NCBI GenBank assembly: GCA_035221665.1
Contig: CM069139.1
Location: forward strand, 75,082,001 to 75,146,000
Source: Okamejei kenojei
Taxonomy: Eukaryota
Length of the DNA stretch: 64,000 bases
Reading direction: 5' to 3'
A program made the position numbers and the translations under genes. How positions within the stretch are numbered: position 1 is the first letter of the stretch; each line of letters opens with the position of its first letter. The notes under the pieces are model-generated. The model saw only the letters and a program-made list of their open reading frames with translations, did not search any database and was not told the DNA's origin. This document shows positions 1,069 to 63,934 of the stretch, one piece after another.

Positions 1069-1200
1069 GGGTTCCCAGACAAAACCAGAGACGCCGAGAT
1101 ACGCTCCTTTAAACGTCGCGATCGTTAAATGGTGTCCACTAAATTCATATTGCTTCTCTTCCTTTTCCCACAAGAGGGTAGTATCCTCAGAGCTGTTCAT
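1069..1200 (-). CDS. EEF1AKMT3: EEF1AKMT3/METTL21B-like paralog 0, exon 1 (remaining exons lie left of the window)
   Basis: ATG at 1200; 44 codons ending YEFSGHHLTIATFKGAYLGVSGFVWEP, then phase-0 GTAAGT donor at 1068. Homologous to exon 1 of the other copies. Confidence 0.85.
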
Positions 1201-1984
1201 CCTCTTTGGTTTTCAGTTGACTAACTGATCCACGGCAGGATGACTCCGGTCTTGGATATAAATTTCTACCAGATTGAGAACTACAAGTCTGGTAAAGCTA
1301 CTCTGAAGCAGAGATGCGTCGAATGTATTTCTAAAACCACTGTGCTGTATATTGGGGCTTGCGGAAAAACACATTGTGTCTACTGTGATAAAAAGATACA
1401 ACTGGCGAGTGAAATTATTCATTGAATTCAGCAGAGGGTATTGACCTTAGATTTTAGAACGGGTTCCTAGCCTGGTCGTGTTATAAATGTTACATTTACT
1501 TTACAAAGTACCCACGTAAATCCACCAGTTTTAGCTTAGTGACGTACTCTTATACTGAGCACATTGGTAATTATAATAACATTAACATCACCTGTCAGTT
1601 TTTAATAACACTTTTCTATCATAATCATATATTGGTGCTGCCGGAAGTTAATCTCCGAAAATAACCTAATATATTCGTATTTTTATTTCCAATGTTGAAG
1701 AAGTTGTTTCTAGTTGTTCGCTCCCTTCTATTTGGAACAAACTAGTTACAACTTAACGTGGATTTTTTCTTTAAAAGAAAATGGATGAGATATCGAAATA
1801 CCTTGACTGACATCCTCCCAAGTACTGTATTTAAGTGTTTATGGTGAGGCAAGCCCTTTGTTATAATATTGTTTTAAAGTATTATGTAATGACAACTTTC
1901 CAAATAATACTTTCAACGTTTAATCCTGCACTGCTACATCCACTACAGCTCAAAATAACGGAAGGGAACACATTTTTCAGGGTA

Positions 1985-2080
1985 AAACACAAGATCCTGG
2001 AATAATCCAGCGGGTCAGGTAACATCACTGGAAGACATGGATAGGTGACGTTTCGGATCGGGACCCTTCTTCAGAACGTC
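1985..2080. mobile_element. Penelope-derived short repeat with hammerhead-like core
   Basis: Minus strand reads CTGAAGA-AGGGTCCCGATCC-GAAACGTC; the same family recurs across the window. Confidence 0.6.
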
Positions 2081-4104
2081 GCGCACTGGTAGTTTCCTTG
2101 TGTCGGATGAAAAAAGTTCCCTTTATCCTAAGAACATTATTCTCGCAGGGGATGAAGAATCGCTGGAATTCTCTGCCCCATGGAATTGTGGAGGCTAGAT
2201 CATTGGCAGTAATTAAAGTTGTGGTAGATTGTTTTTAAGATTGAGCAGTTGAGGGATAGGGAATTGCCACAGAGATGGAGTTGAGGCCTGAGGTAGTTCA
2301 ACTATGGTTGAGGGTGTCAGGTGGCTTATTCATGCTGTTATCTTTTTTTATGTTCATGTGCACTATGCTGCTAATTTAGAGAAGAGCATGGCTGTTGCCC
2401 GCATCTACGGACTGCATATAAGAAGATTGAGGGCTGATTCCATTGAGATATATAATATTTTGCGAGGGAGAATGACGGTGCAGATATCACGATGGCGTGC
2501 CGGCAGACGAGAGATTCGAGAACTGGGTCACATATTGGGACAAAAATGTAACGTCGGAGTCACTCGCGGGTCAGTCAGACAGAGATATGGAAAGGGAAAT
2601 GGATAAAATTACAGATGCTACAGCCAGACCAGGTGACATAACGCGACAGTGAAAAATAAGTTAAGATCGATTATCCTTATTTATCTCTGCAATGCGTTTC
2701 TAATGGAGTTTTGGGATATTCCCAGCAGGCTGAACTATTCAGCAAATGAACAACTGAGTTACAATTATGATAGGATGAAGCAGAAGGAAAGAATGATTTT
2801 CCTCGTTCGATGATTCGATATTGTCTAGAAAACCCGTCTCCAATTTTCTGCAAGGTGGTCGCATGGATGTTTAGCTGCCGAGTACATCCAAGGCAAAGAG
2901 ATAAATCGGTTGGTGTATTCACCCCTAGATTAGTTGGGTAATCGGGACGTTGTGGGATATAAGTCTTAGAGAATAGGTTATTGGGAAATGAGCGGGAGCA
3001 TGGAACCAAGGCGAGTGCTCACAGATTTGCATTGACCATAGTTGATTCACGTCAGGCCTCAACAGCATATAAGATGGATTGACATTTGAACACTGATCAA
3101 GAGACATGGGGATTCGATGGGAAATGGATTAGAGGTGCAGAATGAACAGTTACCTGGGTCGTATCATATTGTTGCCTGTGGGAGCTTGCTGTGCTTAATT
3201 TCATTCCCTTCTTTCCAACATTACAATAATGACTACAATGAAAAGCATTTCGTTGAAGGTAACCCGCGACGGGCTCTTATCAGCATCCATTAATATATTC
3301 GAATAACTGGAACAAGAAAGTCAGAATTTTACGAATTTTGTAGAACTGGGGTCGCCAGCCATGACGTGATAAAACTCACCATTCTACAAACAACTGAATA
3401 ACAATGACTATAATAATCCTAATGTTAAAGATAATAACGTTAAAGTAATAAATACCACCACGGTGATCTAGATGTAATCCGTGATATGGATTTGCGTTTT
3501 TGACGGTTAATGAGATTGGCAATATAGATAGGAGATGTGCGAAAGACTAACAATCAAAATCACGGAAGACCAAGGACACCACACACCGCAAAGCGCCTGG
3601 AAATGCCTTTCCCATTCTGCAGAAAACATCGATGTCCTATGTTTCCGCCCGTACAACAAAGGTGGAATACTCCGCTTTAACCTTACGCTCAACGTTTAAC
3701 CTGCGCAAATCCGCATCACAGAATATTGCCCAATAATAACACGGTTATTATTTGATCACTGAGTGAATGGGAGCAGGCAGATGGGATTAGTTTTGCTTGG
3801 TCAATTTGGTCGGCATGGACGAATTGGCCAAAGAGCCAGTTTCCATTCTGTGTAGCTCTGTAACCATAATCCCCGTATTTGCTCGGGCCCATCTGATACA
3901 GTTCATTTGTTACCCGCTCATGTTACCCGCTCATGTTACCCGCAGAGAATAGAAAGTGCACTTGATCAGTGTGTTTTTGTCAGTACATAGAGTAACACTT
4001 AATCTACGCCTGTGAGGAGGTCAGGGGATGGGTGGTCTTGGTGAAATTCAAACTTGGTGAGTAAGTCACTGGTGAATGAGTGCTTCTTGATAGCTTTGTT
4101 GATG

Positions 4105-4350
4105 ATGAGCTTGATCGCCCCGACGAGGGGGGCCGCCGCCGGCCACTGGAGTAAGATCGCCGGAGGAGAAAGAAGGGAGAAGTGAAACTTTTTTTCCGCC
4201 TTCCGGAGGAGTCACTGTTGTGGATGTTTATGCTAAAGTGTATTTTGTGTGCTCTGCCGCTTTTTATTGGTATGACTATATGGGAAATCAAATTATTCAC
4301 ATGTTGCAAAACATACTTGGCCAATAAAGTATGATTATGATTGTTATGAT
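4105..4350 (+). mobile_element. Short retroposon remnant with AATAAA and (TGATTA)n tail
   Basis: GC-rich head and a 3' end (aataaagtatgattatgatt) similar in layout to the elements at 53600 and 56900-59095. Confidence 0.45.
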
Positions 4351-9335: not shown

Positions 9336-9390
9336 TGATTGGTCGCTCGGGAGTTAGCGAGTGTGGGCGGACGTGTGGGCGCCATATAAA
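9336..9390 (+). promoter_or_regulatory. Candidate core promoter of paralog 1
   Basis: Inverted CCAAT at 9338-9342, GC box GGGCGG at 9365-9370, TATAAA at 9385-9390, about 50 nt before the ATG. Confidence 0.65.
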
Positions 9391-9441: not shown

Positions 9442-9612
9442 ATGACCACAGTCGCAATCTCAGAACATTCCGGCGATAATGAGCCGAAGGAGGAGCGTGC
9501 CGCCGCTGGTGGCTACATCACCTACAGCAACTTTCAGTTTTGCGGATACAATTTAAAGATCGCTCGAATAGTGGATGATATCATGGGCGTGTCTGCTTAT
9601 GTCTGGGACGCT
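9442..9612 (+). CDS. EEF1AKMT3: EEF1AKMT3-like paralog 1, exon 1 of 3 (225 aa in total)
   Basis: MTTVAISEH...FQFCGYNLKIARIVDDIMGVSAYVWDA, then GTAAGT. Exons of 171+112+395 = 678 nt join in frame. Confidence 0.9.
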
Positions 9613-10507
9613 GTAAGTCCGCGAAATGATTGGACTAACGGAAAGCCCATCTCTTAGAACTTGCTTACTTTTTGAATCTTAGTAATCACTTCCTTTCCGA
9701 TGAACTGTCTCCCAACTGAAACGTTAACTGGGTCCGTCTCCGCAGATGCTGCCTGACCCGCCGGGTGTTTCTAGTATTTTATTTTGTTTTCTTTTAAGTC
9801 ATCCTTTCCTCTTATTTCCTTTGCACGGATTTGGAAATCATTTCATTACAGAAAAAAAAACACTTCACGTTGATTAGCACGGTTAGAACATCCCGTGCAC
9901 GGGGGGGGGGGGGGGGGGTCTAGGTTGGGCTGGGTTGGTCTCTGCCGTATTATCAAGTTTAACATTAAATAAATGTGGGAGACCCAGTGATGCGAAGTAA
10001 ATAATCTGACCTCGAGATGGTAATAATTCCCTTGCCTCTTGTTGTTGGGTCTCATTTCCTCGCCATAAGTGGCCAAATGTCAGAGATATACACGATATGC
10101 TTGTGTAACTCAGTGGGGCAGGCAGCATCTCTGGAGGGAAGGAATGGACGACATTTCGGGTCGCGACCCATCTTCAGACTATGAGGACGAGTCTGGGAAA
10201 AGTAGTGTAAGCCCTGGCGACGAGGGTCATGGTGGCAGTGGGTACCGTTGGCGATTGCGTCTAACTATTTTCTTATGAAGGGTTCAGCAGTGCTTTCGCA
10301 AACAGCAAAATCAACCGGAGGGAACAAGACCTGCGGTGCATGCAATGCAGGAATATATCAGCAGGTCGGACAGCAGCTTTATAGTGAGAAACCGAAATGA
10401 TTTTGTAATCCATTGCCCTGTCATCAGAACAGATCAGGGCTGATCTGATGGAGAAGTGTCCAGTGCGGTATCCTCTTCCTTAACAATTGGTATCTGCTCC
10501 ACGATGA

Positions 10508-10684
<177 letters not shown>

Positions 10685-10769
10685 TGAAAAGATTGTGAAC
10701 TGAATGGAACAATCACATGCAAAATAATTAGGGGAATCTAAATCGGGGAAAGTGACCAAGTGCAATGTG

Positions 10770-11087
10770 GAAACAAAGAATCGCAGTTGCTGGTTTTCTG
10801 GAGAAAATGGGCAGTTGACGTTTCGGCTCGGGACCCTTCTTTAGACTGAAAGTTGGAGGTGGTGGTGGGGCTGTGGGGCAGTGGGGGCTGGAGGTGAGAA
10901 AAGACTAAGATCGCGCCCGGCACCAAATGACCTCCGGCAGGATGATGCCCTGATAGACCAATTGTTGGCTACCGAATGTGTGATCTCAAGAGGGATAGAT
11001 AGACTGTGGTGAACTGTGGAACTCGTTCAATGACTAGCGTGGGGAAGGGGGCAAGGACGGGAGGGGAGTGTTAGTAGAAGTGACTTC
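10770..11087 (-). mobile_element. Penelope-like element terminal part, split by the DIRS insertion
   Basis: Hammerhead-like terminal motif near 10817; the sequence appears to continue at 15324. Confidence 0.6.
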
Positions 11088-11509
11088 AAATAGTAAGATT
11101 ACACGAGAACTTTATTTTATGAGGAGTTACGATGAGCGATTACATGAAAAAGGCCGTCAGCCACATGCGCGTCATCCTACAAAGCAGCAGTGTGAAATCA
11201 CAGAATAACAGTTGCTGAACTGACTATATAGTAAGATACGAGAGACTAGAATATCAGCTGATACTCTATGAGGGTTGGGAGCGGTAGGCACCTAATCGCT
11301 CATCGTAACCCCTCATAAAATAAAGATCAAACTTCAAACTGGTAAGTTCTCATTTAATCTTACTATTTTACTCCGGAGTCATGTGAGACTATGTGAAGAC
11401 TTTGAAGCTCTGTGATTTCATGCCGTGGATGCAAGTCCAAGCCACACACTGTATTGGTTGACCAAGGATGAGAGATAAATGCAATCAGACATGACAATTT
11501 TTTAAAACA

Positions 11510-11866
11510 TATAACCATATAACAATTACAGCACGGAAACAGGCCCTCTCGGCCCTTCCAGTCCGTGCCGACCATTTGTTTTCCCCTAGTCCCATCTACC
11601 TGCACTCAGACTATACCCCTCCATTCCCTTCACGTCCATATACCTATCCACCTTAGTCTTAAATGTTAAGATCGATCCTGCCTCCACCACTTCTGCTGGA
11701 AGCTCATTCCACACAGCCACCACCCTCTGAGTAAAGAAGTTCCCCCTCACGTTACCCCGAAACTTCTGTCCCTCAATTCTCATGTCATGCCCTCTTGTTT
11801 GAATCTTCCCTACCCTCAATGGGAAAAACGTATCCACGTCAACTCTGTCTATCCCTTTCAACATTC
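11510..11866 (-). mobile_element. CR1-type LINE 3' end nested in the DIRS element
   Basis: TRGHDM..RGNFFTQRVVAVWNELP plus CR1 3' UTR and tail. Confidence 0.88.
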
Positions 11867-12276
11867 TTTCATCATTTCAACATGCTGATGCTTTTAATGG
11901 ACAAATTATAATAACAGTAGATCCTCTCATCCAGGGAACTACATAACAGAACTTAAACCGGTTGGCAAAAGCCCCTGGTCTGGTGACAGGTCTATGATAG
12001 AATGTCTGAAATGTGCGTTCTCTAGACCATCCTGCAGTCGCTAGGAGCTGGTCTTAGCGGGATGTCCATAATCCTCGCTGCTGACGTGGATGCAGCCCTG
12101 GTGGAGTGAGATTTAAAATAGTCAGTATTGTCTCCTGCATATGTCAGAACCTGTTACAGCCACCTCGACATGGTCTGAACTGAGACCTTTTTGTGAGGTT
12201 TCTTAAAACTAACAAATACTGCTTGTTCTGAGCCCCTAAGGCTTCTTAGTGACCTTTATATATAGCTGGAGGTGTG

Positions 12277-12876
12277 TTACCACACATAGCCGGAGTCCAA
12301 GGGGTAAGCCGCAAAATGAAGCTTTAGGACGGATGTACCTGTTCTACTTTGCTTGTGTAACGACTGTGCCCATTGAGCTAACACCAACGCCATTAGCATC
12401 ACTACTTTGTACGTGAGTTGGACCAGGGACAGGGATGTTGCCGGTACCCACCGGCGGAGCAGAGTTAACACTGTGCCTACATCCCATATTTCCGTATTCC
12501 TGGGCCTGGGAGGGCTCATGTTGAAGATGCCCTTCATGAGCCTGGACACTAGAGGGTGAGACCCAACAGGGTGGTGTCCAGATCCCTGCCACAAATATGC
12601 GGATAGTGCACTTCTGGCACAATTGATAGCACTATAACTGAGCTTCTCATCAAAGAATAGATTTGAGAGAAACTCTAACACATTGGTTATCTGTGCTGAG
12701 TCATATGATATATTGGCTTGTGAACAGTACACTTCCCACTTCCTAATGTAGGAGATGTATTGTTTCTTTGTACTGTCTCTCCAGCCTGCAGCGAGTACAT
12801 CGATCATGCGATCAGACAATCCGAGCCCCAAGAAAGGTCTTCCAGACTCTGTGAACCAATAAATTAATTTGGTCAT
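12277..12876 (-). pseudogene. DIRS tyrosine recombinase, N-terminal part (disrupted)
   Basis: WRDSTKKQY..IRKWEVYC..VLEFL..LSYSAINCARSALS..HPLVSRLMKGIFN..WDV..LTYKVVMLMAL. Confidence 0.85.
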
Positions 12877-15323
12877 GGAGAGGATGTCTCCCCCCCTCCC
12901 CGATCAGGGCGGTCGGCAGATGCTGCCTTGGGAATGGCCATAAAGGCTGATCATCCCCAGTGAGATATGTGACTAACGGTAATGTAGGCCAACTGGTATA
13001 ACCAGGAGCCTGTGGCAGAGTCTAGCTTGATCTTCAGCAAATATAGACTGATGAGGCAGAGTGGGGGAAATGCATACAGCACATCCTTCTTCACTGTAGT
13101 GGGGATACATCCACCGCCACTGCCTATTGGCCTTGTTCTTATGCAACACACTTTGGTGACTGGTGACAAATTGATATCCGGTGTTCTATATTGGTCGATA
13201 AAGTCATAAAACATGATATGATTACATCTGTTCTGTGTCCGCCACCATATTAAGCCTACCTGGCAGCTGGGTAGCTGATATTCCAATATTCCTTGGAATG
13301 CAATGCACCAGTGCCAACTAAGTTAGCCAATTTATCACAGGATACAGGCTTGATTCCACCCATGTGATTAACGTATGCCACCGCTGTGGTGTTGTGATTT
13401 TAAAGTTGAACATGCAGATGATGCATATTCCCGCAATAACCCGTAACCCATAGAGTGCACCCATCAACTCCGAGTGGTTAGTACTTGACCATAGAAGAAC
13501 TGATGACTCATGCGTATTTCATCTGTCACCACAACAGTCGTGATACACCTGGGGAATTGTGGGCATAATTACTGGGGTAATGCCAAATACGGAACGTCCA
13601 CCATGTAACTCAAAAAGGCTTCCGCTGGTCTTAAGAACCAGACCCACCTACCTCTATGGCTACCGCTGGTCTTATGGTAAGCCCAAAGGCCCCTGATGTG
13701 GGTTCTTTTTCCCATCCTAGATTGGAGAGTAGGACTGGTAGGGTGCGTGGATTCCATATTTTCCCTGAGACTGGCTTAGGCCTTGGTCTGAAAACCTCGT
13801 CATACTGAACCTGCCTCGAAAGACAACTCTGGCCATAATTCTGAGCCTGCCTCGAAAGACAACTCTGGCCATATTTCCATGCCCAGCTTTCAAGCTGCCA
13901 CCAGCTTCAGTGAACCCCTTACCCCCGATGGGGGCATGGGGTGTGTCGTTGCCTACCGATGAAACTTTGCTCATCATCGGTACCTTGATTAGTCCGACAG
14001 CTTTTTGCTTCCTCATTCTGGTCTTACCTGTGGGATAAGTCTTACCTGAAGAGAGGATTCTGCGGCTGGTTTGATTTCCTGGATTTCATGCCTCCAATGT
14101 CACCCTGATAGCGCTGTTCACTGCCGGCACTTGTAGCGTGAGGGGAACTCTGGCCCCTTCCGGGTATTCTGCCAATGACTGGAGACCAACTCTTCCGGCA
14201 GCAACACCTTCGTTTGCGAGTCTTGAAGCCGTATGCATGTGCTCCAGTATGTTCCACGGACATGCTTTCAATTTTGAAGTCAGTTACACACTGACCACTC
14301 GTACTCCCCTCCACAGCGAGGGAGATTCGTAGGCAGCCCTGAAAACAGGTGCTGCTGCAGGCCCCTGAGGATACCTGTGCAGACATGGCCCCTCCTAAGG
14401 ACCTCTATCAGGATTTTTGCTCTGTCAGACAGGAACTGAACCCAAATGCTCCCCTCCTCAGAGAGGGAGACATTGTGCAGCCCTGAAACAGGTACCACTG
14501 CGCCAGGCCCTGATGAGACCCGCGCTGATAACTCCCTCCTTTGGAGTATCATTGTGGAGCAACCTCTCCATCAGGTGCTCCATGTGGGTTTAGACGTCTG
14601 CAGACGCTACCCATTGAAGGCAGGGAACCCTCCTGGCCTGATTCCCCTCGTCCACAGGCCTGACCATCTTACTTTTGGTTTTACCCCCTTTCTGGGGACC
14701 CACAGCGGTCTGGAAGCAGCTGACCACTAGATGTCGGAGGGGTCGCTCCTGGCCTGACTTCCACAGGCCTACCCGACTTGCTGTTGGTTTTACCCCCATC
14801 CGGGGAACCACAGCCAGTCTGGAAGCAGCTGACCCATGTATGTCGGGTGGGACCGTCCTGGCCTGTATTCACAGACCTTACCGGCTTGTTGTTGGTTTTA
14901 CCACCTTCCTGGGAACTGCAGCCGGTCTGGAAGTCACTGACTGTGCTGTCAGTAACTTGGGTGGCGAACCCGATGGCCGCCGGCTACCCGCACTTCTGCG
15001 GTCTCTGTAGGTGGTTCCCCCTGGTCCCGGTATCCGTGGTCCAAGACCGGGATTCCCCGCATCCATAACCGGTTTCGCGGCCCGTCCGGACTTCGCCCCG
15101 AATTGGTCCAGCAGGTATATCTCTGTACAGAGATTCCTGCAGCAAAAGAAAACACAAAATCTGGGTATAAGTTTAAAAACTTACCTTCAGGTTTAAACTT
15201 ACCGCTGGATGGAGCAACGCGCCCGCCAGTCGGCCTGGTTGCGCAATGAGGTCAACGTAAAATGACGTGCAAGCGGGCTGACGGCCTTCTTCACGTAGTC
15301 ACTCACGTGACTCTGAAGTAATA

Positions 15324-15830
15324 TTAGACAATTCAACGTTCATCCTGCTGAGTTGCACGCAACCAAGCAAATATAAAATGCTTTTCCTCCAATTTGCGTG
15401 TGGCCTCACTCTGGCAATGGAGGAGGCCAGGGGTTGAAAGGTTGTTATGGGAATGGGAAGGCAACCGGGATATCCAATAGGTCTGGACGGTAAGTTGTAA
15501 GTGTTCAGGGAAACGGTCACCCAGTCTATCTTTGTTCTCGGCGATGGACAGGAGCCCATGGAAGTTCACATGTACTTCCTCTAACCTCATTTACCGTATC
15601 GGGCGTTCCAGATGTGGGTTCCTGTACATTGGCGAAACCATACATACAGAGGTTCACATGTACATCTCCTACACAGCGCCGAGACCAAATGAAGACTCGG
15701 CGACCGTTTCGCTCAACACCTTATATTTCGCTTGGGCAGCTTACAGCCCAGCGGTATGAACGTTGTTATCTATTTTTTATAACTTATACTAACGTTCCCC
15801 TCCCCCCTTGCCCCCTTCCTCCAACCTGAG
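15324..15830. mobile_element. Penelope GIY-YIG endonuclease fragments in inverted arrangement
   Basis: Plus strand FTCTSSNLIY..CGFLYIGET (GIY-YIG); minus strand RLGDRFPEHL..RKLEEKHFIF. Confidence 0.8.
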
Positions 15831-16678
15831 TTTCATATAACATGCAGATTGATTAACAAGTACATTAATAATCGGATTTGAACATCTACTCTTTGAATTC
15901 TCATTAAATGGAACCAACATCAGTCGCTTATGATGAAAGTCAAGTGTGTTAGCAAAGAATTAGTTTTCTCTCTTGAGGTGGCAATTGTGTGTTCAGGTAC
16001 TACTGGCCGTGACCGGACATCAAATTATAAACACCGATACATGGTATACGACATCAAGGTGGCCATGATTCAGGTCTGTGCAGTAAATACTCATAGTGCC
16101 TTAATTGGGTATTAAACGTTAATCATCACTTCAAACCGTATTTTTATAAGGTAAAATGTAAAAGTCATTTAAAAGGTAAAATATCCCAAGGCGCATTTCG
16201 GGGATGTGATAATTCACGCCTACATTGTTGGAGCCTAATGAATGTTGTGAATTCCTGGATTCGGGTTTGAAATGCTCCAGCGTGTGTTCCTGAAGCACCC
16301 GCACGACATTTCATTGTTGACGGGAATGTTGAGTCCCGTGCGCTCAGCGAGATCAGCTGCTGGCCCAGGGCTCTTGTGTTATTAACAAGATTGATTGGGC
16401 ATTTTCTGGCTCGAAGGGTCCTCATCGCTATAGATGGGTAGTTATTTAAGTTCTGAGATTGGAGCGATCTCTTCGTGGTGCAGTGAAACAAATTTCGGTG
16501 GCGTTCGGGGGGATTCAGTGAGTAATCAATTTATGAAATCTGATCAATTGTAAAACGTTGGTGCCATCATCGAGGACATCAATACATCGAGGAAACCGAG
16601 TTCAAATTGAAAGGGCATTTTGAACGTTGAATCAAAGTCTATAGCCCAGATTCTGTGATAGTTACGTTCTATTAATTT

Positions 16679-16681
<3 letters not shown>

Positions 16682-16726
<45 letters not shown>
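16682..16726. repeat. (TA)n microsatellite
   Basis: Read directly from the sequence. Confidence 0.95.
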
Positions 16727-16729
<3 letters not shown>

Positions 16730-16730
<1 letters not shown>

Positions 16731-17650: not shown

Positions 17651-18300
17651 TGCAAGGAACCTCCCCTATTCATCCACCTCCCCTAATGGAAGGTCATTTT
17701 ACCTGCTTTCCAAAACATTGGTTACATATGGAGTCCTGTATGCACCCTGGTCGCTACACTGAAGGAAGGATGTGATTACACTGGAGAAGCTGCAGAGGGG
17801 ACTCACCAAGAGGAGGAATGAGGCATTACAGTTTTAAGAGAAGTAGTTCTTTCCCCTAACTCGGTTGAGACGGGGGAAAGATCTGTTGGATTGAAAACTA
17901 AGGGTGAGGAAGATAGTAAACTTACTTTTCCCATGGTGGGTGTGTCCCTAATAAGAGGGCGCTGGTTTAAGTAAGACGGAGGAGGTCCAGAGGTAGGGTG
18001 CGGGGTCTGGGATGAACGTATTTGAAACAGAGCATGGGTGGATTCTGAAATGCAGTTCCGGTGGATATGGTGGAGGCAGGTACACTCAGAATATTTAGGA
18101 AGCGCATAGAAAGATAACTGAGTCGCCTAGTAGGATCTGTTCTACTACTCGATGTCACCCTCTGAAATCCTCCATCAAAGAACAGATGGTACAGCACTGT
18201 ACGGGGAGGCTTTGGGGCACGGTTCTCACTCGGGTGTGCCTTTGATTGCTTAAATAGGACAGTCAAAGAAAATGGGCACGATTTTGTTTTCTCTCATTAG

Positions 18301-18695
18301 GTGGAGAGGTCACCATGACTGATAAGCCGAAAATCCTGAGGCAAATAGAAAACAATATCAGCATCAACATCCCCTTTGCCTGCAGGCACCGTGTAAAAGT
18401 CCAGGCCCTGGTATGGGGTGAAGACCACACCAGCTTTCCCACCGATTATGACTTCATACTGGGTTCAGATATTGTTTATAGCTCAGCTTGCTACCCGGCG
18501 CTTGTGGAGACATTGCGCTATCTCGCCAATCAAGGAACCACAATTTACATCTCTTCCGAATTACGACCGAGGAATCGCTCGCCTGCTTTTCACAAGGAGG
18601 TTTTACCGCAGCACTTTGAATGCCAAGTGGTTGAAACGGTGGAGGACAAGGACATTGTGTTATACAAAATGACAAAAATCTGTTCAAATCGTTAG
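18301..18695 (+). CDS. EEF1AKMT3: EEF1AKMT3-like paralog 1, exon 3
   Basis: ctctcattag acceptor; GEVTMTDK..LVWGED..YDFILGSDIVY..TIYISSELR; TAG stop. Confidence 0.92.
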
Positions 18696-30368: not shown

Positions 30369-30539
30369 ATGGCAACGACACAGTATGGTCAACGTCCCAA
30401 GTACGACAGCGGCGAGAATGATGATCATGAATCGACGACTTTAATCCGCTGGAACAACTTCGAATTTTGTGGATTTAGTTTGAAGATCGCTCGAATGATG
30501 GATTCAAGATTGGGCATCTCCTCGTATATTTGGGATGCG
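30369..30539 (+). CDS. EEF1AKMT3: EEF1AKMT3-like paralog 2, exon 1 of 3 (228 aa in total)
   Basis: MATTQY...FEFCGFSLKIARMMDSRLGISSYIWDA, then GTAAGT. Exons of 171+112+404 = 687 nt join in frame. Confidence 0.9.
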
Positions 30540-31589: not shown

Positions 31590-31793
<204 letters not shown>

Positions 31794-34049: not shown

Positions 34050-34453
34050 GTGGCAATGTTACAATGACGGACAAACCGGATACCTTGAAGCAAATACACA
34101 GCAATATAGCTGTCAACATCCCTATTGCATGCCGACACCGTTTAAAAGTTAGTTCGCTGATTTGGGGAGAAGATCAAACTAAATTTCCCAACGACTACGA
34201 CTTCATTCTGGGCTCAGATATTGTCTACAGTTCGATCTGCTACCCTGCGCTGTTGGAAACTCTGCGTTATCTCTGCAATCAAGGGACCACGATCTATCTT
34301 TCCTCCGAACTCCGATCCGGGAATGGGTCCATTCCTTTCCATGACGTCATCCTGCCTGACTACTTTAACTGCGAGGTCGTGACCAAATTAGAGCCTAAAT
34401 GCATAGTCGTGTACAAATTGACTAAAATTAGTACAGGGCAAGTTAAGAAATAG
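34050..34453 (+). CDS. EEF1AKMT3: EEF1AKMT3-like paralog 2, exon 3
   Basis: ttctcag acceptor; GNVTMTDK..LIWGED..YDFILGSDIVY; TAG stop; AATAAA at 35022. Confidence 0.92.
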
Positions 34454-46650: not shown

Positions 46651-48926
46651 GTAATTTAATTGGCAGGGACGGTAATGCTCACTGAAAGTCGATTCACATA
46701 ATTGATTTATTGTAGATTCAGGATGTTTTCGCCTTGGTGTCTCACCAAGAAGCGACATGCTTCGTTTTGATGTGGGCATGAGTTAATTCCAGCTGCCAAT
46801 ATGATTGTACATGAGACAATTCATCAAATTACATTAATTACTTTATTTAACCGAATGTCACTTGGCTGATTTGACCTTTGGTTTGGCTATATTGGACACA
46901 ATCGCTTGACACCAATTGGGTACAATTGGAACAATTGGGTAGAGTGGAACGCAAAATCACATTTATCCTACATAGATGTTGTTCAGAAAGCGGTGTTGAT
47001 TTCATAAGCGATGCATTTTACCAAATATATGGCGCCAGAAATGACTAGTCCCCGTTTGCTCAAAATTCTTCAATGTTAACCGCAACTCAGATGTTTTACA
47101 CGATAAGGCACACATCCCCCTTCCTTCATATCCCTATCCAACATGACAGAAAAGTTTTAAAAATCACATGAGTTAAATGTTAAAGTTAGTTAACCTTCTT
47201 GTTTAATTGACGGATTATTTAATGGGAAGATCGACAACAACCGGAATTCTAAAGGCTGAGGTAAGTCATAGATATAAAATAATTTAATTTTAATACACTG
47301 CGGCGAGACTGCAAATGTTTCCAGTATTGACAATGCAGCTTAAGGCTGCGAATGGAAAGTTAAAAAAACCCGGGAATCCTTGTGTGGAGGTACTAATTCA
47401 AACTCGCTCGATCAATAATGGGGTGATTTCTTGGAATACATTTCAGTAAATCGTGTCCTGGTCCCACACGTGACACCGATGTTACAACCGCATCTTCTCT
47501 CCTTGACCACATGCGAGGATTGCAAAATGAGACCAAGGCCGCTCAACATTAAATCTTGCGACATTTTGGCAGGTTAAAGCCTGAGCACTAGTGCACCACA
47601 CGCATCTCCAAGAAGAGCGGAGTAAGCGCCGTGACAGAGAAGCAGCTTAGCGTGAGTTTTATGTCTTCTTTATCACTGTTGAATTCGCTTATGCTTCATT
47701 TTTATTTTAATTGAGAGTGACAATGGCATTTCTGAGCCGTCACAGTCACCGTGAACTAAAATAGTGAGCATTATTTAATGATATTGTTTAATAAGTAATG
47801 GAACACGATTCCTGAGCATCTAGATTTTAGATTGGGTGTACTTGATTGTATAAACCGTCCATTAGCTGAGCGTACCTGAGGAGGAATTCGTGTTTATTAT
47901 TGGAGTCGCAGCGTCCTAAAGATACAATAGGGAAACACGCCATCGAGTCGGCACCAAGCACGAACACCATAATTCCTATCACTAATTCCTAATTCCTACA
48001 ACCTAATTCCTACCAAAAGCCCATTTTATTCTCCCCACATTCCACCAACTCCCATCCATCCTCAGATTTTCACTCACTAAGCTAGATATTTGGGGCAATT
48101 TACAGCGGGCAATTAATCCACTTGCACTAGGCGACGGAAAGGTCCCTCCGGCACTGCAGGGCAGCGCTGTGATTAGCCCCGCCATCGCGCGCCCGACTAT
48201 ATTGATCCGGTGTATAACATACTTAATATTCCAGTCCTTGGAATTGCAGTATTACCAAATTGAATATTCGGCATCGGTGACCTGCTGTCGCGTGGCATCT
48301 GAGAACTGGCAAAATGCCCAAAAGGTACCAATGAACTCGCGGTTCGTAAATACATCTTGGCAACAGAAAAGGTGTAAATGTAACATTGATGCCAAGATAG
48401 GAAGTTTGGTCCCAACAGTTGGTGCTCATCTTAGTTCCTGAATGATCACCTTTCATAAGAAGGCTAGAATTAAAAAAAAAACAGGAGCAGGCTGCCGCCT
48501 CCTTGTAATCCTGTAATTCAATTACGTCCTGATGTTTTGCATCAACACCATTTTCTGAGACTAACCCTAAATTCTCTTAGCGCACAGTCATTTTCTTCTG
48601 AGGATCTTACAGCCAATGATTTGTTTTCGTACATAATAGTGTAACTGAAACCTCGACATTTGATTGTTCTGAATTATGTGAATGATTCTATATTTAATTG
48701 TAGTAACTGTTTTGAAGGTGGCTTCCTATATCTTGCTGCGGGTCTTCCTGCAAACATTGGGAACGAGATTTAAATGGCGTATTTAACTTCGTGCACCGCG
48801 TTTTCTTTGACTTCCTTCACCCAGAGCAAAACGTTGGAGTGGGAGTGGGTCCAGGACTGAATGATATAGCCGTCTATATTCGGGGAAGATCGACTTTTTT
48901 TGAGGGTCCGTTCAAAATCAGCAAGG

Positions 48927-49052: not shown

Positions 49053-50194
49053 GTAAGTAGATAGTCTAATTGCGCATATGTTACTGGGGGATTAAACTTT
49101 ACTTGCGAATTATTGGTAATATTTTGCAAAGTGTCACCACTAGCATGGATTATAAGGAAATGTGGCGCAGTCTACCCGTCCAGGCCTTGCGTGTGCTTTG
49201 ATTCCGAGAGAGAATAGTGCTGGACGTTAAGTAATTGGGCAAATGACTGCCAACGGAATAATAAATACTGTATAACGACCTGGGGGAGTCCTTAAATTAG
49301 TGAATTCCAACTCACGTAACCGTAATCGCATCTGAGCTACCTTCTACCACTGTCCACTACAAATACTGTCAGGACATCGTTCAAGTCCCTCTTGGAGTTA
49401 TTAAATCACTCCGCAAATGCAAAGGAACTTTCGCTCGTCCTTACCATTATGCGTACGTGTTATCTTATCTGTGTGCGCTTCCTTTCAAATCCGAGCCTTG
49501 CCCCGGCCCTGCTTCCCTTTCTTACAAAAGTCGTACAAAACCTCCGTTCTTTCTGCGCTCTTTCAATTTTACCATGCGCATCCGTGTTTCTTTTGAATCA
49601 CTTCCCCTATTGAAATTCTTGCCTTCGGGAGCCTGGGTCCCGAGGTCTTGATAATAGCAACTCCGCTATGAGGCGTCTCTCACCCCACCGCCGCCGCAGT
49701 CTTCCAGACTCTCAAATTCTCCATCTTTCTTCCTTCTTCAACGCTGGCCGTTCTTGGTAACGTCAACTATGAACAAATGCCAGTAGCAGAGGCGACAGTT
49801 GGCGGTAGAACGAGGTTCAGACTGAGTGACATGAAGTTCATTCACAGAGCAGAGAGCAATTATTCCGAAGCGAGTTCGGTTTGGCCACTGTGATACGATA
49901 CCAGAAATCTGTGCAGCATCCTTTGGTGCATCAAGACAGCCGGATAATGTAACTTTTTTATTTAATTCGAAATATGGGACTTCAAGTGAACGGTAATTAC
50001 CTATTTGCGTGTGCTGATCTAATGTGACGTCATTCACAGCAAGACGATTTAGAATACCTGCTCAAAGCTGGCCATTGACGATCTTGGAATGAATTCCCAC
50101 CATCTGGCACGCCTCCCTGTCCCCACTCTGTCCCAGAATCTGGCACGTCATGTAATGTCGTCGTCATTAACATTGAGCTCATTTTTTTTCCGAG

Positions 50195-50306
50195 GGCATC
50201 GTGCTTTGTGAGTACTTCCAAGATGAGAAGATCAACTTTGCTGGGAAGAAAATAATTGAACTGGGATCTGGCACGGGAATAGTGGGAATTTTGGCAGTAC
50301 TGCTTG
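50195..50306 (+). CDS. EEF1AKMT3: EEF1AKMT3-like paralog 3, exon 2
   Basis: ttttttccgag acceptor; [37 protein letters not shown]; GTAAGT donor. Confidence 0.9.
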
Positions 50307-51012: not shown

Positions 51013-51407
51013 GCGGAGATGTCACTTTTACGGACAAACCATATGTTTTGGAGCAAATTGAACGGAACATTGCTGACAACATCCCGACTCACTCCAGGCA
51101 CCGGGCAAAGGTCGGTACCCTGAGGTGGGGCACTGATGAGGAAAACTACCCAGCAGACTTCGATATCATTCTTGGTTCCGACATCATCTATAGCCCAACA
51201 CAGGTTCCTATACTCTTGAAAACATTGACGCATCTCTGCGGCGAAAACACGAGCATTTATTTGTGTTCTAACTTTCCCGCCAGGGTGGGATCAGAGAATT
51301 TCCACAAGGAGGTATTACCAAAGCAGTTCAACAGCGAATTACTTCATTCAAACAAGGGAAATCACATTTACAAGCTAACGAAAAAATCTCCAGAACACGG
51401 GGACTAG
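51013..51407 (+). CDS. EEF1AKMT3: EEF1AKMT3-like paralog 3, exon 3
   Basis: ctttcag acceptor; GDVTFTDK..LRWGTD..FDIILGSDIIY; TAG stop; AATAAA at 51622. Confidence 0.92.
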
Positions 51408-54640: not shown

Positions 54641-54641
54641 A

Positions 54642-57220: not shown

Positions 57221-57359
57221 TGTTGAAATGATCAGACTCACACATATCATTTAGAAGTCATAGTCTTTTACTTGTAATTCTACGGAGAAAACACCTTGTG
57301 CTTTCGTCTCCACGGCATACATCTAATCTAAGAGAAAGAGAGAGCGCGACCGTGTGGTG

Positions 57360-57394
<35 letters not shown>

Positions 57395-58907
57395 CAGACT
57401 AATTTACATCCTTCCTCTTAAAGAATTAAATGCAAAATGTAAGAACTACTGATTACACAAAGTACATATAGTATGTGTCAATAAACTGGAGCACGTTCAA
57501 ACGCAGCCCGGGTACTTTACGGTGGGCTTGCAGATGGGACCTGCACGCGTACGGTACAGTCCTGCATCTTCTCCCGTCGCCGGAGACGCGATCGGTGGTA
57601 GAATAAATGCGGGAGATTGAAACAGCATCCCTGGCGATGAAACAGGAGACTCTGGCACAGGTGGAGGCGGTGTGGCCATATGCGAAGCGACTGGATCGGA
57701 AGCGGATGGCAGTGTTGGTCTGGTCAGGCCAATGACGCTGGATGGGGATGGGAGTATACCTGTGCGGTCGGGATAATACGGTGGTTGTGTTGGTTCGTTC
57801 ACAGGCAGGATGTGCAGTCGGTTACGTCTGTAGGTGCCACCATCGGCATTGACCAAATATGAACGTGGCTCGGAAGCAGTTCCAGAATTTACACCGAGGC
57901 GGTGGTAACCTCTGTCAGTTTGCAGATGCACCACCTGTCCCTCGGCTAGTGGTGGATGTGGTCTGCTCGTCTTGTCATACCACCCTTTTTGAATGTCACG
58001 CTTTTGTTGTAGCCTGGACTGGATTTCTGATGGTTGGAACACATGCGGTAGCAGTGCCTGTTTCGCCACAGGCAATGTGACTCGGGTCTGCCTTGACATC
58101 AAACGCTGAGCGGGAGAACCCAATATCAGGTCGCGCGGGTTAAGCTGGTCTGGGTATACGTCTGATTTTGTGGGATCCCTGTGGGTTCGTTCCATCAATT
58201 GTTTGGCACTCCTGACGGCACGTTCAGCTAGCCCATTAGACTGTGGGTATTCGGGGCTGCTGGTATTGTGGTGAAAACCCCAGCATGTAGCAAAGTCTTT
58301 GAAGTACTGGCCGGTAAATTGACTGCTTATCAGACAGTAGTTGATACGGAGACCAATGATTGGAAAAATGGCGTTCCAGCTTCTGGACTACCCCTGTAGA
58401 GGTGGGGCTACTAAGTAGATCGATGTCAAACCATCCGGAATACGAGTCAACTAGAACCAGGTATTGTTTGCCATGCCACTCAAAATTGTCATTCGCCACA
58501 GTGGAGCATGGGAGATCAGGAACTGGGTGTGAGAAAAGCTGGGGATGCTGTTTCAATCTCCTGCACTCATTCTACCACCGATCGCGTCTCCGGTGACGGG
58601 AGAAGATGTAGGACTGTACCATACGCATGCAGGTCGCATCTGCAAGACCCCATTAAAGTACCTGGGCTACGTTTCTATTTCATCCACTTCTAACACCATA
58701 TTGAAATGATCAGACTCAAACATAGCGTTTAGAACTCATAGTCTTTTATTTGTAATTCTACTGAGGAAACACCTTGTGCTTTCGTCTCCACGACATAATC
58801 TAATCTAAGAGAGAGAGAGAGAGAGTGGGTGTAAGACATGCAGGCTGCTTGTGGGCGGGTAGTGATGAAGATCTGGACTGGACATCATAAGGAATGTGCA
58901 GCATGCA

Positions 58908-58950
<43 letters not shown>

Positions 58951-60768: not shown

Positions 60769-61181
60769 TTAGTTTAAGCACCCATCCCGTGGATATGTAC
60801 CAATTCTGGTCATTTTATACACTATAACATTTTTTTCATCTACTTTATCAACTACCTGGCAATTAAAATGCCGAGGTAGAAGCTCGTCGTGGAAGAAGGG
60901 AGAACCATTCATCTTTCGTAATTCGGACGAGAGGTAAATTGTAGCTCCTTGCTTGGCGAGATGGCACAATGTCTCAACGAGTGCCGGGTAGCTAACGGAG
61001 CTATAAACAATATCAGAACCCAAGATGAAGTCATAATTGGTGGGAAAGCGGGCGTGGTCTTCACCCCATGTCAGGGCCTGAACATTTATCCGGTGCCTGC
61101 ACGCAGAGGGGATGTTGATGGAGACGTTGTTTTCTATTTGCTTCAGCGTGTTAGGTTTATCTGTCATGGTCACTTCTCCAC
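60769..61181 (-). CDS. EEF1AKMT3: EEF1AKMT3-like paralog 4, exon 3
   Basis: ctcgctag acceptor; GEVTMTDK..LTWGED..YDFILGSDIVY; TAA stop; AATAAA at 60718-60713. Confidence 0.92.
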
Positions 61182-61730
61182 CTAGCGAGAGAAAAGCGAA
61201 ATCCATTTCTCTTTCCTTTCAATTTCATTGATCACGGAGAAGATTAGGATACACAATGTCGGGCGGTATTGAAACTTACTTCGAAGAGGATGGGATAAAT
61301 CATTATCTTAAAACTAGCAGAAAGGTCAAATAGATTAGCGACGCGTGGGACTTCCAGAGTCCACCCGGTCCCTCGTTTATAAAGGACGACCACATTAATT
61401 AGGAACAGAACACAAAAGATGGCCTGGTTGTCTAGGTTGCTGTTGTTGTTTTAACCTTCCATGACACCTAGCAAACTGCCCCGCGCCATGATTTTGTTAT
61501 ACAGGCCACGACGGATGCAGATTCGCGTGAGAACATCATCCTTCAGACTTGACTTGCGTTCTCTAACTTAAATCCCCCGAAACACATTTACCAGCTGGGA
61601 AGTGATGACTCCAATATTCCTGAACAATAACACCTTTATCGCTACCCGCACGCCCATCATTATTATCCAAATTCATTTTTGATATCAGGAGGCGCTGGAG
61701 TTCAGTTCGCTTCGCCAAGTGTGCACTTAC

Positions 61731-61842
61731 CAAGTAACGTTGTTAAGATCCCCACGATCCCAGTGCCCGATCCCAGTTCAATCACCGTCTTCCCAGTAAA
61801 ACTGGCGTTCTGCTTCTCAAAGTACCGGCAAAGAGCGACCCC
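61731..61842 (-). CDS. EEF1AKMT3: EEF1AKMT3-like paralog 4, exon 2
   Basis: tttcag acceptor; [37 protein letters not shown]; GTAAGT donor. Confidence 0.92.
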
Positions 61843-62213: not shown

Positions 62214-62640
62214 TAGAAACATAGAAACATACAAAATAGTTGCAGGAGTAGGCCATTCGGCCCTTCGAGCCTGCACCGCCATTCAATATGATCATGGCTG
62301 ATCATCCAACTCAGTATCCTGTACCTACCTTCTCTCCATACTCCCTGATCCCTTTAGCCACAAGGGCCACATCTAACTCCCTCTTAAATATAGCCAATGA
62401 ACTGGCCTCAACTATCTTCTGTAGCAGAGAATTCCAGAGAATCACCACTCTCTGTGTGAAAAATATTTTTCTCATCTCGGTCCTAAAAGATTTCCCCCAT
62501 ATCCTTAAATTGTGACCCCTTATCCTGGACTTCCCCAAAATCGGGAACAATCTTCCTGCATGTAGCCTATCCAACCCCTTAAGAATTGTGTAAGTTTCTA
62601 TAAGATCCCCCCTCAATCTTCTAAATTCTAGCGAGTACAA
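62214..62640 (-). mobile_element. Young CR1/HER1-type LINE 3' end in intron 1 of paralog 4
   Basis: Very similar to 41365-41785; (TTTCTATG)n tail. Confidence 0.92.
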
Positions 62641-63566
62641 GTCATTTTCGGGAGTGGGTGGATGGACTGCGCTCCCCACGCCATGCCTCTCGCACTTAGA
62701 GCGACAAGAGGGCGAAGGAAGATCTGTTTACTGCGGTCTGAGGTCAGGAGCCTCAGCAGATGAGGATTCAGTGGGAGGTAATTGAAGCCTCAATATATAA
62801 AATATAGCAGCGGCAATCGTGATCCAATGAGCTTCCATCGCACCTTAACCCAAGAGTTGAGACCACAGAAATACCCATTGTTTAGCCTAAACATGTGAGA
62901 CAAACGCAAGGTGTAGGTCGACATGGACTGGAGGCACCGGTTTGGTCAAAGATCCCGACAGCTTTACTTGTCTCGGTGCTTGGAACATCCGAACAGCAGC
63001 TGTGCGCTGAATCAAACTACTGCAGGCGTGAACTCTCCAATACATTCAGTCATCGAGTCATACCGTACGGAAACAGATCCTTCGGCCCATCTCGGCCATG
63101 CCGACCAAAATGCCCCATTTAAGCTAATTCCACCTGCCCGTGTTTGGCCAATATCCCGCTAACCCTCTCCTATCCATGTACATGTCCGGTTGTCTTTTAA
63201 ATGTTGTTATTGTACTAGCCTCAACCACTTTATCTCGCAGCTTGTTCCAGAAAGACGCCATCTTCTGTGTGAAATCCCTCCGTCAGGTTGTTTTGAATCT
63301 TAAACCTATACCGTCGAGATTTTACTTCCCCTAGTTACACGAGAGACTACAAATGTTGCAATCTAGAGGAAAAAAAGAAAAACTGCAAAATAATATTCGA
63401 TAGGACAGGCAGCATCTGTGGTGAGAGAAAAGACTTAACATTTCAGGTTGTGAACCTTTAGTCATCACATGAAAATGCATCTTGTTAAAATAGAGTTCTG
63501 ACTTTTTCCATCACAGGCGCTGTCTGACTTGATTGAGCGTTATTTCAGGTATTCAGCATCTGCCTG

Positions 63567-63683
63567 GGGTGGGAGATTGCAACCTTCACGTGGTCTGCCC
63601 TGTTTCGACGAATGCAATCAACCTGGCGTGCACAATCAAATGCGATCAAATACAACAAGTAGGCCTGCACGCCATACGCAAGA
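63567..63683 (+). mobile_element. 117-bp retroposon insertion with 12-bp target-site duplication
   Basis: AGCATCTGCCTG at 63555-63566 and 63684-63695; ends in aaga. Confidence 0.7.
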
Positions 63684-63766
63684 AGCATCTGCCTGTTGAA
63701 CTCTGGTAAATATAACACATGGGAAACGTCGCCTTTCGGCAAACTCCAGTTGTTGAGTTAACTTAC

Positions 63767-63934
63767 AGCTTCCCAGACGTACGCCGAGAAGCCGATGTTC
63801 GCATTGATGAAACGAGCGATCTTTAAATTGTATCCGCAGAACTCGTATTTGTTCTCGAATATGACGGTGGGATCACTTGCCCCGTCCTTTGCGGCGCCGT
63901 CGCAAGGGGTCTCCACCCGTCCGACAGCCGACAT
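63767..63934 (-). CDS. EEF1AKMT3: EEF1AKMT3-like paralog 4, exon 1 of 3 (230 aa in total)
   Basis: MSAVGRVETP...KYEFCGYNLKIARFINANIGFSAYVWEA, then GTAAGT. Absent from the ORF track. Exons of 168+112+413 = 693 nt join in frame. Confidence 0.9.

Follow-up and report, generated by a model that had tools for sequence, protein, structure and literature searches.

The window, that is, the whole 64,000-nt stretch of DNA from the skate Okamejei kenojei analysed here, contains four complete three-exon genes (B, C, D and E); a fifth (A) is represented by its exon 1. The features are as follows:

1069..1200, minus strand: copy A exon 1; 44 codons, then a GT donor; exons 2-3 lie past the left window edge
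9338..9390, plus strand: copy B promoter-like elements; consensus matches only
9338-9342, plus strand: copy B reverse CCAAT; consensus match only
9365-9370, plus strand: copy B GC box; consensus match only
9385-9390, plus strand: copy B TATAAA; consensus match only
9442..9612, plus strand: copy B exon 1; beta1-beta2 hairpin and the loop closing with the conserved Trp
10568..10679, plus strand: copy B exon 2; 112 nt, SAM-binding motif I; PF10294 E 1.1e-6
18301..18695, plus strand: copy B exon 3; Post I, motif II, DxxY, C-terminal strands and stop; apparently converted from or with E in batoids
30369..30539, plus strand: copy C exon 1; gene model
31641..31752, plus strand: copy C exon 2; 112 nt
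34050..34453, plus strand: copy C exon 3; whole C protein 99% identical to Leucoraja P0024
48927..49052, plus strand: copy D exon 1; gene model
50195..50306, plus strand: copy D exon 2; 112 nt, rare GAG acceptor just upstream
51013..51407, plus strand: copy D exon 3; A/D subclass, last hairpin two residues shorter; whole D protein 90% identical to Leucoraja P0036
63767..63934, minus strand: copy E exon 1; gene model
61731..61842, minus strand: copy E exon 2; 112 nt
60769..61181, minus strand: copy E exon 3; whole E protein 97% identical to Leucoraja P0002 (97-98% to Leucoraja erinacea)

The complete copies encode proteins of 210-230 aa (B, 225; C, 228; D, 210; E, 230) that share 46-64% pairwise identity. 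In all four, exon 2 measures 112 nt, the introns are in phases 0 and 1 and run from GT to AG, and there are no internal stops or frameshifts; exon 1 of copy A is 89% identical to the N-terminus of the full-length Amblyraja radiata P0079. These gene models confirm the original prediction of at least five METTL21B-like genes, four complete and one partial, with the same exon layout and no lesions. The copies were also described as tandem, a term that needs qualifying: B, C and D lie on the plus strand and A and E on the minus strand (order of orientations - + + + -), and the genes are spaced 8-15 kb apart with retroelement debris in between. The span 1069-63934 runs exactly from the copy A donor to the copy E start codon, and a 169-base N gap is located between B and C (24847-25015). 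The CpG observed/expected ratio near the ATG is within the window's top 5% for four of the five copies; CpG-rich starts and the existence of RefSeq models are indirect hints of expression.

A profile of 122 relatives, compared with all six frames of the window, revealed 13 exon matches (E <= 2.3e-9), every other match having an E value of at least 8.8; the window thus contains neither a sixth copy nor a pseudo-exon. The introns and flanks had been reported to show no similarity, which holds for the 44 position-matched region pairs in general, since only four exceeded the best of 40 shuffles. Two of these four are out-of-register matches of ~50 nt that resemble, by eye, the window's dispersed repeat, and the pair at the start of C and E intron 2 is marginal (23 vs 22 for the best shuffle). 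The fourth is an in-register match of ~30 nt between B and E, directly before the exon-3 acceptor (24 vs 23), and it is this marginal trace that qualifies the earlier statement. No similarity was detectable between the regions upstream of the copies (0 of 10 pairs exceeded the shuffle maximum). The window also gave no Rfam match to structured RNAs at the gathering score and no tRNAs.

Exon 3 of B, C, D and E matches PF10294 with 60.9, 55.9, 53.3 and 63.1 bits, respectively (curated cut-off, 21), and exon 2 of copy B with 29 bits; exon 1 of A and of B, searched alone, gave no match to this family (five of the seven queries matched overall). Motifs I, Post I and II and D/E-x-x-Y/F, which mark the MTF16/METTL21 family (PMC5416902), are present in all four complete copies. 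The motif-I Glu/Gly/Gly, the Post I Asp and the pre-helix Trp are invariant in all 84 aligned relatives, and the Asp and Tyr of DxxY are kept in at least 90% of them. By alignment mapping, the copies retain the equivalents of METTL21D W43, D144 and Y147, which constitute its lysine pocket and catalytic residues (PMC10339199, PMC9942839). The fold was assessed on the AlphaFold model of P0036, the Leucoraja orthologue of D, rather than on the window's own spliced proteins (pLDDT 89.9, pTM 0.87). The model shows a seven-beta-strand fold with the METTL21-type N-terminal hairpin, and its best structural match is human METTL21B (PDB 4QPN; Z 32.2, rmsd 1.9 A, 201 residues aligned), followed by METTL21A (Z 28.9) and METTL21C (Z 27.7); an ESM Atlas search returned only METTL21-family clusters, described at phylum level. 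Multi-domain representatives (P0124-P0126 and others), only 27-45% identical to the family, were left out. Judged by these residues and the predicted fold, the copies encode METTL21B-like methyltransferases of the seven-beta-strand type, in which the residues for SAM and for the lysine pocket are intact and catalysis is putative; the cluster is not a new enzyme class.

Humans carry the EEF1AKMT3 (METTL21B) gene only once, and the cluster had been interpreted as an expansion of EEF1AKMT3. METTL21B is indeed the best human match of copy B exon 3 and of the Leucoraja orthologues of E, D and C, with 175-196 bits for the cluster orthologues, compared with 82-119 for METTL21A and METTL21C and 66-71 for METTL21D. 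The cluster also falls outside the METTL21A-like outgroup clade (support 99-100), whose rows were assigned by motif in a reference set without METTL21E. Thus, the copies do not scatter among different METTL21 subfamilies, METTL21B being the nearest for every copy tested, and their identification as METTL21A, C or D orthologues was rejected. However, a separate shark and ray protein scores 289.5 bits against human METTL21B. This canonical orthologue, represented by eight shark and ray proteins, occupies a single locus on contigs that differ in length from those of the cluster in the same species (for example, 73 and 256 Mb in Mobula, 38 and 131 Mb in Heterodontus, and 28 and 87 Mb in Heptranchias, the canonical contig being given first). 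Two of the eight are named TSFM by their source records, and TSFM adjoins human METTL21B (PMC9300649). The canonical clade is separate in our trees, and its union with E or with D was rejected (AU p=2e-5 and 3e-4). As judged from scores and trees, the EEF1AKMT3 orthologue is not among the copies and apparently lies on another chromosome in sharks and rays.

The copies have counterparts far beyond this species. Orthogroups A, C, E, F and G each include both sharks and batoids, and a clade comprising the four skate copies alone was rejected (AU p=5e-49), which rules out a recent skate-specific expansion. Hence, the family is lineage-specific, as had been proposed, but the lineage is the elasmobranchs and not this species alone. 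The distribution of the orthogroups dates the copies, as common to sharks and rays, to more than 270 million years ago. Orthogroups F and G, which in Leucoraja and Amblyraja lie on contigs equal in length to those of the cluster, agree with the earlier expectation that it extends past the window, and the cluster, as reconstructed, has at least seven members in skates and more in some sharks: among the matches listed, one contig carries at least 15 copies in Heptranchias, at least 11 in Heterodontus, at least eight in Mustelus and at least four in Leucoraja, and in the A/D clade genes multiplied within single shark species. Our sampling comprised 122 named proteins from 20 species. The best 120 of 240 profile matches are all elasmobranch and reach down to 308 bits; since human METTL21B scores 257 on the same profile, chimaera or bony-fish members may exist below this floor. 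The 50% representatives P0130, P0139, P0140, P0145, P0147, P0154 and others fall inside the expanded clade. Free trees join the shark canonical and cluster genes (support 96-97; SH-aLRT from quick trees, as for all branch supports here), which suggests that the subfamily arose by duplication inside the cartilaginous fishes. Alternatively, it may descend from an older ohnologue, as a tree with all canonical-type genes in one clade gave AU p=0.33 with five presumed bony-vertebrate rows.

The copies are under purifying selection. The dN/dS ratio, which had been proposed as a check, is well below 1: it equals 0.25 for the B/E pair (bootstrap 0.15-0.37) and 0.10-0.24 for four saturated pairs, these values being rough because dS is saturated in five of the six pairs. 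Identity by codon position follows the order 2 > 1 > 3 in all six pairs. Together with the shark-to-ray orthogroups and the absence of lesions, this upholds the view of old paralogues kept intact. The paralogues are, however, apparently not fully independent, given the exon 3 of B and E. The exon-3 tree unites batoid B with batoid E (support 95), and exons 1-2 do not; exon-wise AU tests gave p=0.023 and 0.011, with significance inflated by the choice of groups after viewing the exon trees. According to these trees, gene conversion in batoids has passed exon 3 between B and E, and exon 1 stayed distinct.

Which parts of the proteins changed is informative in view of the known enzymes. METTL21D holds its substrate with three loops, S2-H1, Post II and S7-H5 (PMC10339199), and the targets of METTL21A-D are set apart by single residues away from the active site (PMC9942839). 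Of 132 columns invariant across the eight canonical proteins, 24 differ in all four complete window copies, and 19 of these are, as read by eye, identical in human METTL21B too. These 19 positions lie in the N-terminal motif, the beta2 tip, Post II, the strand-5 loop and the last hairpin, and are mostly equivalents of METTL21D substrate loops. The canonical N-terminal motif, Post II tail and strand-5 loop were defined here and have no published definition, and the docking surface was taken from METTL21D-p97, because no METTL21B-eEF1A complex was found among the solved-structure matches. Each paralogue keeps its own loop version from skates to sharks: identity of the exon-1 hairpin and loop is 64-90% within orthogroups and 48% between non-canonical groups, and that of the strand-5 loop is 67-85% vs 41%, with 67% between non-canonical groups in the SAM core.

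Given this, functional divergence among the copies is likely, and they probably act on target proteins different from those of the standard enzyme, as putative methyltransferases. On balance, we lean towards an unnamed elasmobranch METTL21 subfamily whose members would methylate targets other than eEF1A Lys165. We propose that the window belongs to an ancient elasmobranch cluster, a METTL21/MTF16 subfamily derived from, yet separate from, EEF1AKMT3. Each protein would bind SAM via motif I, Post I and motif II and place the target lysine between the conserved Trp and the DxxY motif, which together form the pocket. The eEF1A Lys165 housekeeping role would most likely be left to the single orthologue, presumably at the TSFM locus, as its conservation with human METTL21B suggests. 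The cluster copies appear to have replaced the N-terminal segment and the substrate-docking loops, each paralogue fixing its own version, so that each would most likely have one or a few protein targets or sites of its own, like other METTL21 enzymes. Exon 1 and the loop that follows strand 5 would carry most of the specificity, and the exon-3 core could be swapped between copies through gene conversion.

Alternatively, the copies may still methylate eEF1A, at Lys165, at a nearby lysine or in tissue-specific eEF1A paralogues, and be kept through divided expression (by tissue, stage or stress) or dosage. We consider this unlikely, though it is the strongest competitor. It agrees with METTL21B being the nearest human relative and with the dissimilar upstream regions; moreover, human METTL21B is induced by stress and varies among tissues, and the region of eEF1A around Lys165 is variable and not the same in eEF1A1 and eEF1A2 (PMC5416902). 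The SAM core of the copies is 58-68% identical to that of the canonical enzyme, so eEF1A activity may have been retained. On the other hand, the canonical orthologue persists elsewhere, the conserved N-terminal motif is gone and the 19 invariant positions are changed in every complete copy, and dosage alone leaves the skate-to-shark conservation of paralogue-specific loops unexplained.

It is rather improbable that the cluster evolves by birth and death, selection being weak or shifting (e.g., in host defence or germline conflict), with no fixed substrate per copy. The varying copy number, the species-specific multiplications in the A/D clade and recurrent gene conversion would fit such a history, as would the divergence of D, whose identity to the Leucoraja counterpart is only 90% (C, 99%) and which diverges from Leucoraja ~5-10 times faster than do C and E (tree distances of 0.12-0.15 for D and 0.013-0.036 for the other two). 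However, the differences in D fall mostly outside the substrate loops, five orthogroups each span sharks and batoids, C is nearly identical between two skates, and the dN/dS values point to constraint. Still more doubtful is a role as methyltransferases of non-lysine targets (histidine, N-termini or small molecules) or as non-catalytic binders. The same Pfam family includes the histidine methyltransferase METTL18, which was matched in our searches, and the copies carry altered residues after DxxY (Ser/Asn for Leu) and after the pocket Trp (Pro or Glu for Asp); yet every pocket and SAM residue known from METTL21D is kept, and METTL21B/A/C/D score far above METTL18 (Z 25-32 vs 20.5). Finally, the idea that the copies are pseudogenes or products of misassembly (haplotype or false duplication), to which the N gap and the GAG acceptor of D might point, is effectively refuted by the intact reading frames of copies only 46-64% identical, their own orthologues in other species and purifying selection.

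With EEF1AKMT3/METTL21B, which in humans methylates eEF1A Lys165 (PMC5416902) in a GTP- and aminoacyl-tRNA-dependent manner, the cluster shares the seven-beta-strand fold, motif I, Post I, motif II, DxxY and the pocket Trp, but it lacks the conserved N-terminal motif, has a rewritten Post II tail, strand-5 loop and last hairpin, and is multi-copy, unlike the single gene beside TSFM. The MTF16/PF10294 fold and pocket are also common to METTL21A (HSPA-KMT), METTL21C (AARS1) and METTL21D (VCP-KMT), close paralogues that methylate unrelated targets (PMC10238732). FAM86/EEF2KMT in higher primates is likewise a multi-copy expansion of an MTF16 lysine methyltransferase, but its members arose recently and lie in segmental duplications, most of them as pseudogenes (PMC10238732), whereas the elasmobranch cluster is intact, more than 270 million years old and orthologous subclass-wide. 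The shark and ray RefSeq models named "EEF1A lysine methyltransferase 3-like" are the same genes as the cluster, and orthogroup OG0001578 comprises 92 proteins in 28 taxa together with human EEF1AKMT3 (PMC8455134 supplements); in both, the cluster and the true orthologue are lumped together, and the word "methyltransferase" is absent from the main text of PMC8455134. We found no paper on an elasmobranch METTL21 cluster in a search whose reach excluded most subscription papers.

Elasmobranchs retain urea and TMAO. Conceivably, although we give this little credence, the cluster is a methylation toolkit tied to urea/methylamine physiology, in which a conversion-homogenised catalytic core with exchangeable exon-1 specificity cassettes would methylate abundant proteins (chaperones, translation factors, cytoskeleton) to stabilise them in urea-rich cytoplasm or feed trimethyl-lysine into methylamine pools. 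If so, the cluster should be decayed or lost in freshwater stingrays, which no longer retain urea, and present in chimaeras. Returning to the reading we favour, an elasmobranch subfamily with its own targets, the paralogues would constitute a natural series for METTL21 substrate choice, and B and E, with a shared exon 3 and different exon 1, a natural exon swap. Databases could also be corrected, as the true orthologue and the cluster share the label "EEF1AKMT3-like". Seven-beta-strand lysine methyltransferases are mostly single-copy, one enzyme serving one site (PMC10844748, PMC10238732); if 7-15 paralogues with paralogue-specific docking loops have been kept for more than 270 million years, they would point to an unexplored elasmobranch methyl-proteome.

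Exons were located by searching the window with its own exon-like ORFs (tblastn), after which splice sites were read. This yielded five exon 1, four exon 2 and four exon 3 segments, and a profile of 122 relatives run in all six frames found no exon beyond these 13 in the window. The METTL21B-like copies are:

1200-1069, minus strand, copy A, partial gene (exon 1 only, splice-site reading)
9442-18695, plus strand, copy B, complete, 225 aa
30369-34453, plus strand, copy C, complete, 228 aa
48927-51407, plus strand, copy D, complete, 210 aa
63934-60769, minus strand, copy E, complete, 230 aa

All four complete genes have GT-AG introns in phases 0 and 1 around an exon 2 of 112 nt, carry no stops or frameshifts, and encode proteins with pairwise identities of 46-64%, confirming the intact copies of identical exon architecture proposed in the original prediction. 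The accompanying claim that introns and flanks lack similarity held for 40 of 44 position-matched pairs; the exceptions were two repeat-like pairs, one marginal pair and a marginal in-register B/E trace before the exon-3 acceptor. Intron 1 of D ends in GAG, not YAG (50192-50194), after a T-run, and the Leucoraja model shares this junction, with no indel.

Self-comparison of the rest of the window revealed only dispersed repeats, outside the gene copies. Matches were obtained for three of six ORF queries: RVT_1 on two and, below cut-off, a tyrosine-recombinase N-terminal domain on one.

40396-40974, RVT_1 match within a LINE remnant
44210-44764, RVT_1 match within a LINE remnant

LINE (CR1/L2-like) reverse-transcriptase remnants, 71-92% alike, lie at 16730-17647, 40377-42187, 44207-44764, 46151-46655 and 62219-62641. 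A minus-strand ORF remnant inside B intron 2 (12277-12903; weak Phage_int_SAM_4 match, 25.6 bits against a cut-off of 27) is probably a DIRS-type tyrosine-recombinase retrotransposon, and explains the 7.6-kb length of that intron. A broken LTR-retrotransposon-like integrase region, judged by eye and with no Pfam match, spans 57223-58821 and includes short inverted/direct repeats (57223-57631 and 58542-58821). Between B and C, a purine/pyrimidine microsatellite contains an N gap of 169 bases (24847-25015). For vertebrate DNA, the window has a high CpG observed/expected ratio (median 0.73 across 500-base windows), and this extends to sequence outside exons.

METTL21B methylates eEF1A Lys165 and is restricted to vertebrates, with a patchy distribution (PMC5416902). 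The copies had been taken for expanded EEF1AKMT3; this was not borne out, since a canonical EEF1AKMT3 clade of eight distinct proteins from eight species stands apart from the cluster, on other contigs, and tree tests rejected its grouping with E or with D. The Heterodontus canonical protein aligns to human METTL21B from human residue 13 (289.5 bits), and the cluster orthologues only from residue 31-32 (E 195.6, C 184.8 and D 175 bits). Two canonical-clade proteins are named 'elongation factor Ts' at source; we read these records as gene models merged with TSFM, which adjoins human METTL21B on chromosome 12 (58.166 and 58.177 Mb; PMC9300649).

Nor is the cluster a skate-specific expansion: a skate-only clade of the four copies was rejected (AU p=5e-49), and orthogroups A, C, E, F and G (shark/ray gene groups, the last two without a member in the window) contain both sharks and batoids with support of 95-100 (FastTree; IQ-TREE quick). 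D and B have orthologues in batoids, in clades that also hold shark genes. Hence, the cluster is older than the shark-ray split, more than 270 My ago (PMC11979771). Between window copies, dS is at least 1.8 in five of six pairs and dN/dS, where defined, is 0.10-0.25. The cluster may have originated within cartilaginous fishes or may be an older ohnologue; an ohnologue-type topology was not rejected (AU p=0.33).

Named relatives comprised at least 122 proteins from 20 species, all sharks or rays among the matches listed, the largest search contributing the best 120 of 240 matches. Identity to skate RefSeq models is 99% for C, 97% for E and 90% for D (Leucoraja), and 90% for B (Amblyraja) over whole proteins; for E exon 3 a Leucoraja erinacea protein reaches 98%, and for A exon 1 Amblyraja P0079 reaches 89%. 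These identities mark the DNA as that of a skate. Among the matches listed, proteins apparently on one contig were 15 of 18 in Heptranchias, 11 of 14 in Heterodontus, 8/8 in Mustelus, 7/7 in Cetorhinus, 6/6 in Pristis and 4/4 in Leucoraja, these counts being 90%-identity clusters that may contain isoforms, and a common contig not proving adjacency. Chiloscyllium P0064 and P0080 lie on one 1.05-Mb scaffold with locus numbers eight apart, which argues for physical clustering. Orthogroups F (Leucoraja P0105) and G (Amblyraja P0115) are absent from the window and apparently share contigs with orthologues of its copies; skates thus carry at least seven members, and the cluster is larger than the window, as had been thought possible.

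Two further METTL21B-like shark loci, beyond the canonical gene and main cluster, are represented by P0109 and P0119 (Heptranchias 75-Mb and Heterodontus 122-Mb contigs) and by the G-derived P0112 and P0123 (on contigs of 10-12 Mb, with 6 and 15 member sequences), the latter locus being perhaps a younger local expansion. Unnamed proteins P0124-P0126, P0131, P0137, P0138, P0144 and P0151 contain two to six tandem METTL21-like domains each, ~30-36% identical to the cluster family; P0131 carries METTL21C/E-like motifs. These may come from a further tandem array of methyltransferases or from fused gene models.

B/E dS is 0.70, far under the other pairs, and nucleotide identity rises from 73-77% in exons 1-2 to a peak of 80-90% over the first 270 nt of exon 3. 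Batoid B joins batoid E in the exon-3 tree (SH-aLRT 95-96) and C/B-type genes in exon 1-2 trees; both cross-constraints were rejected (p=0.023 and 0.011), for groups picked after seeing the trees. The gene conversion tracts, with a faint in-register trace over the ~30 nt that lead into the acceptor, are:

18268-18570, plus strand, exon 3 of B
60910-61215, minus strand, exon 3 of E

Similar patterns in Pristis B/E (98% in the first half of exon 3, 59% in exon 1) and Heptranchias P0010/P0040 (97% and 56%) indicate that exon-3 conversion recurred independently in these genera. B and E lie in opposite orientations in the window, an arrangement that would permit conversion with no deletion. Exon 1 and the strand-5 loop were spared from homogenisation, which supports a role for them as specificity elements.

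The four complete copies match PF10294, a D orthologue is predicted to adopt the METTL21 fold, and motif I, Post I, motif II, the pocket Trp and DxxY are all conserved. In METTL21D, the target lysine lies among V38, W43, Y147 and Y148, with D144 holding it; three loops, S2-H1, Post II and S7-H5, grip the substrate, and D44 forms the key salt bridge (PMC10339199). At the equivalent positions, all copies retain the catalytic residues, whereas the grip residues differ: the D44 equivalent is Asp in B and C, Glu in A and E, and Pro in D; that of V38 is Val, Ile or Phe; and that of Y148 is Ser/Asn, versus Leu in the canonical enzyme. The strand-5 loop is basic in the canonical enzyme, acidic in B, C and E, and of another motif in A and D. 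Of 132 columns invariant in canonical proteins, 24 are altered in all four copies, and at 19 of these human METTL21B, compared by eye, has the canonical residue. Alignment to the 4QPN chain (203 residues) begins at residue 24; hence, the N-terminal motif lost from the copies is probably flexible while the enzyme is unbound, and it may fold upon eEF1A. Loops are conserved inside each orthogroup and differ between orthogroups; 7BS enzymes read folded surfaces via contacts outside the catalytic centre, and as a rule each is specific for one site (PMC10844748, PMC9942839).

The sequence gives indirect hints of expression. CpG observed/expected around the ATG places B, C, D and E in the 96-98th percentile of the window, and A in the 58th. 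A CCAAT/GC box/TATAAA array upstream of B is a candidate promoter, and polyA hexamers follow all four stops. Logan is among the sources for two full-length Leucoraja-type clusters, P0036 and P0105, which would imply spliced transcripts if Logan holds the full-length sequence itself. P0001 begins in intron-derived sequence and is of genomic origin.

METTL21A-D targets and a primate FAM86 expansion have been described (PMC10238732). Sharks and chondrichthyans have no occurrences in a metazoan METTL survey (PMC8662637), PMC7590793 and PMC6305550 contributed nothing on sharks, and the supplement of a whale-shark paper lists an EEF1AKMT3 orthogroup of 92 proteins in 28/37 taxa, not discussed in its text (PMC8455134). 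Our literature search found no description of the cluster. Its genes are already in automatic annotation, mislabelled as EEF1AKMT3-like. The cluster is real, old and intact, and more than plain gene duplication. Elasmobranchs have a urea/TMAO physiology. Judged from sequence, the cluster represents a previously undescribed subfamily of elasmobranch methyltransferases that derive from METTL21B, keep their pocket intact and have diversified their docking loops; each paralogue would methylate its own protein target and not eEF1A Lys165.
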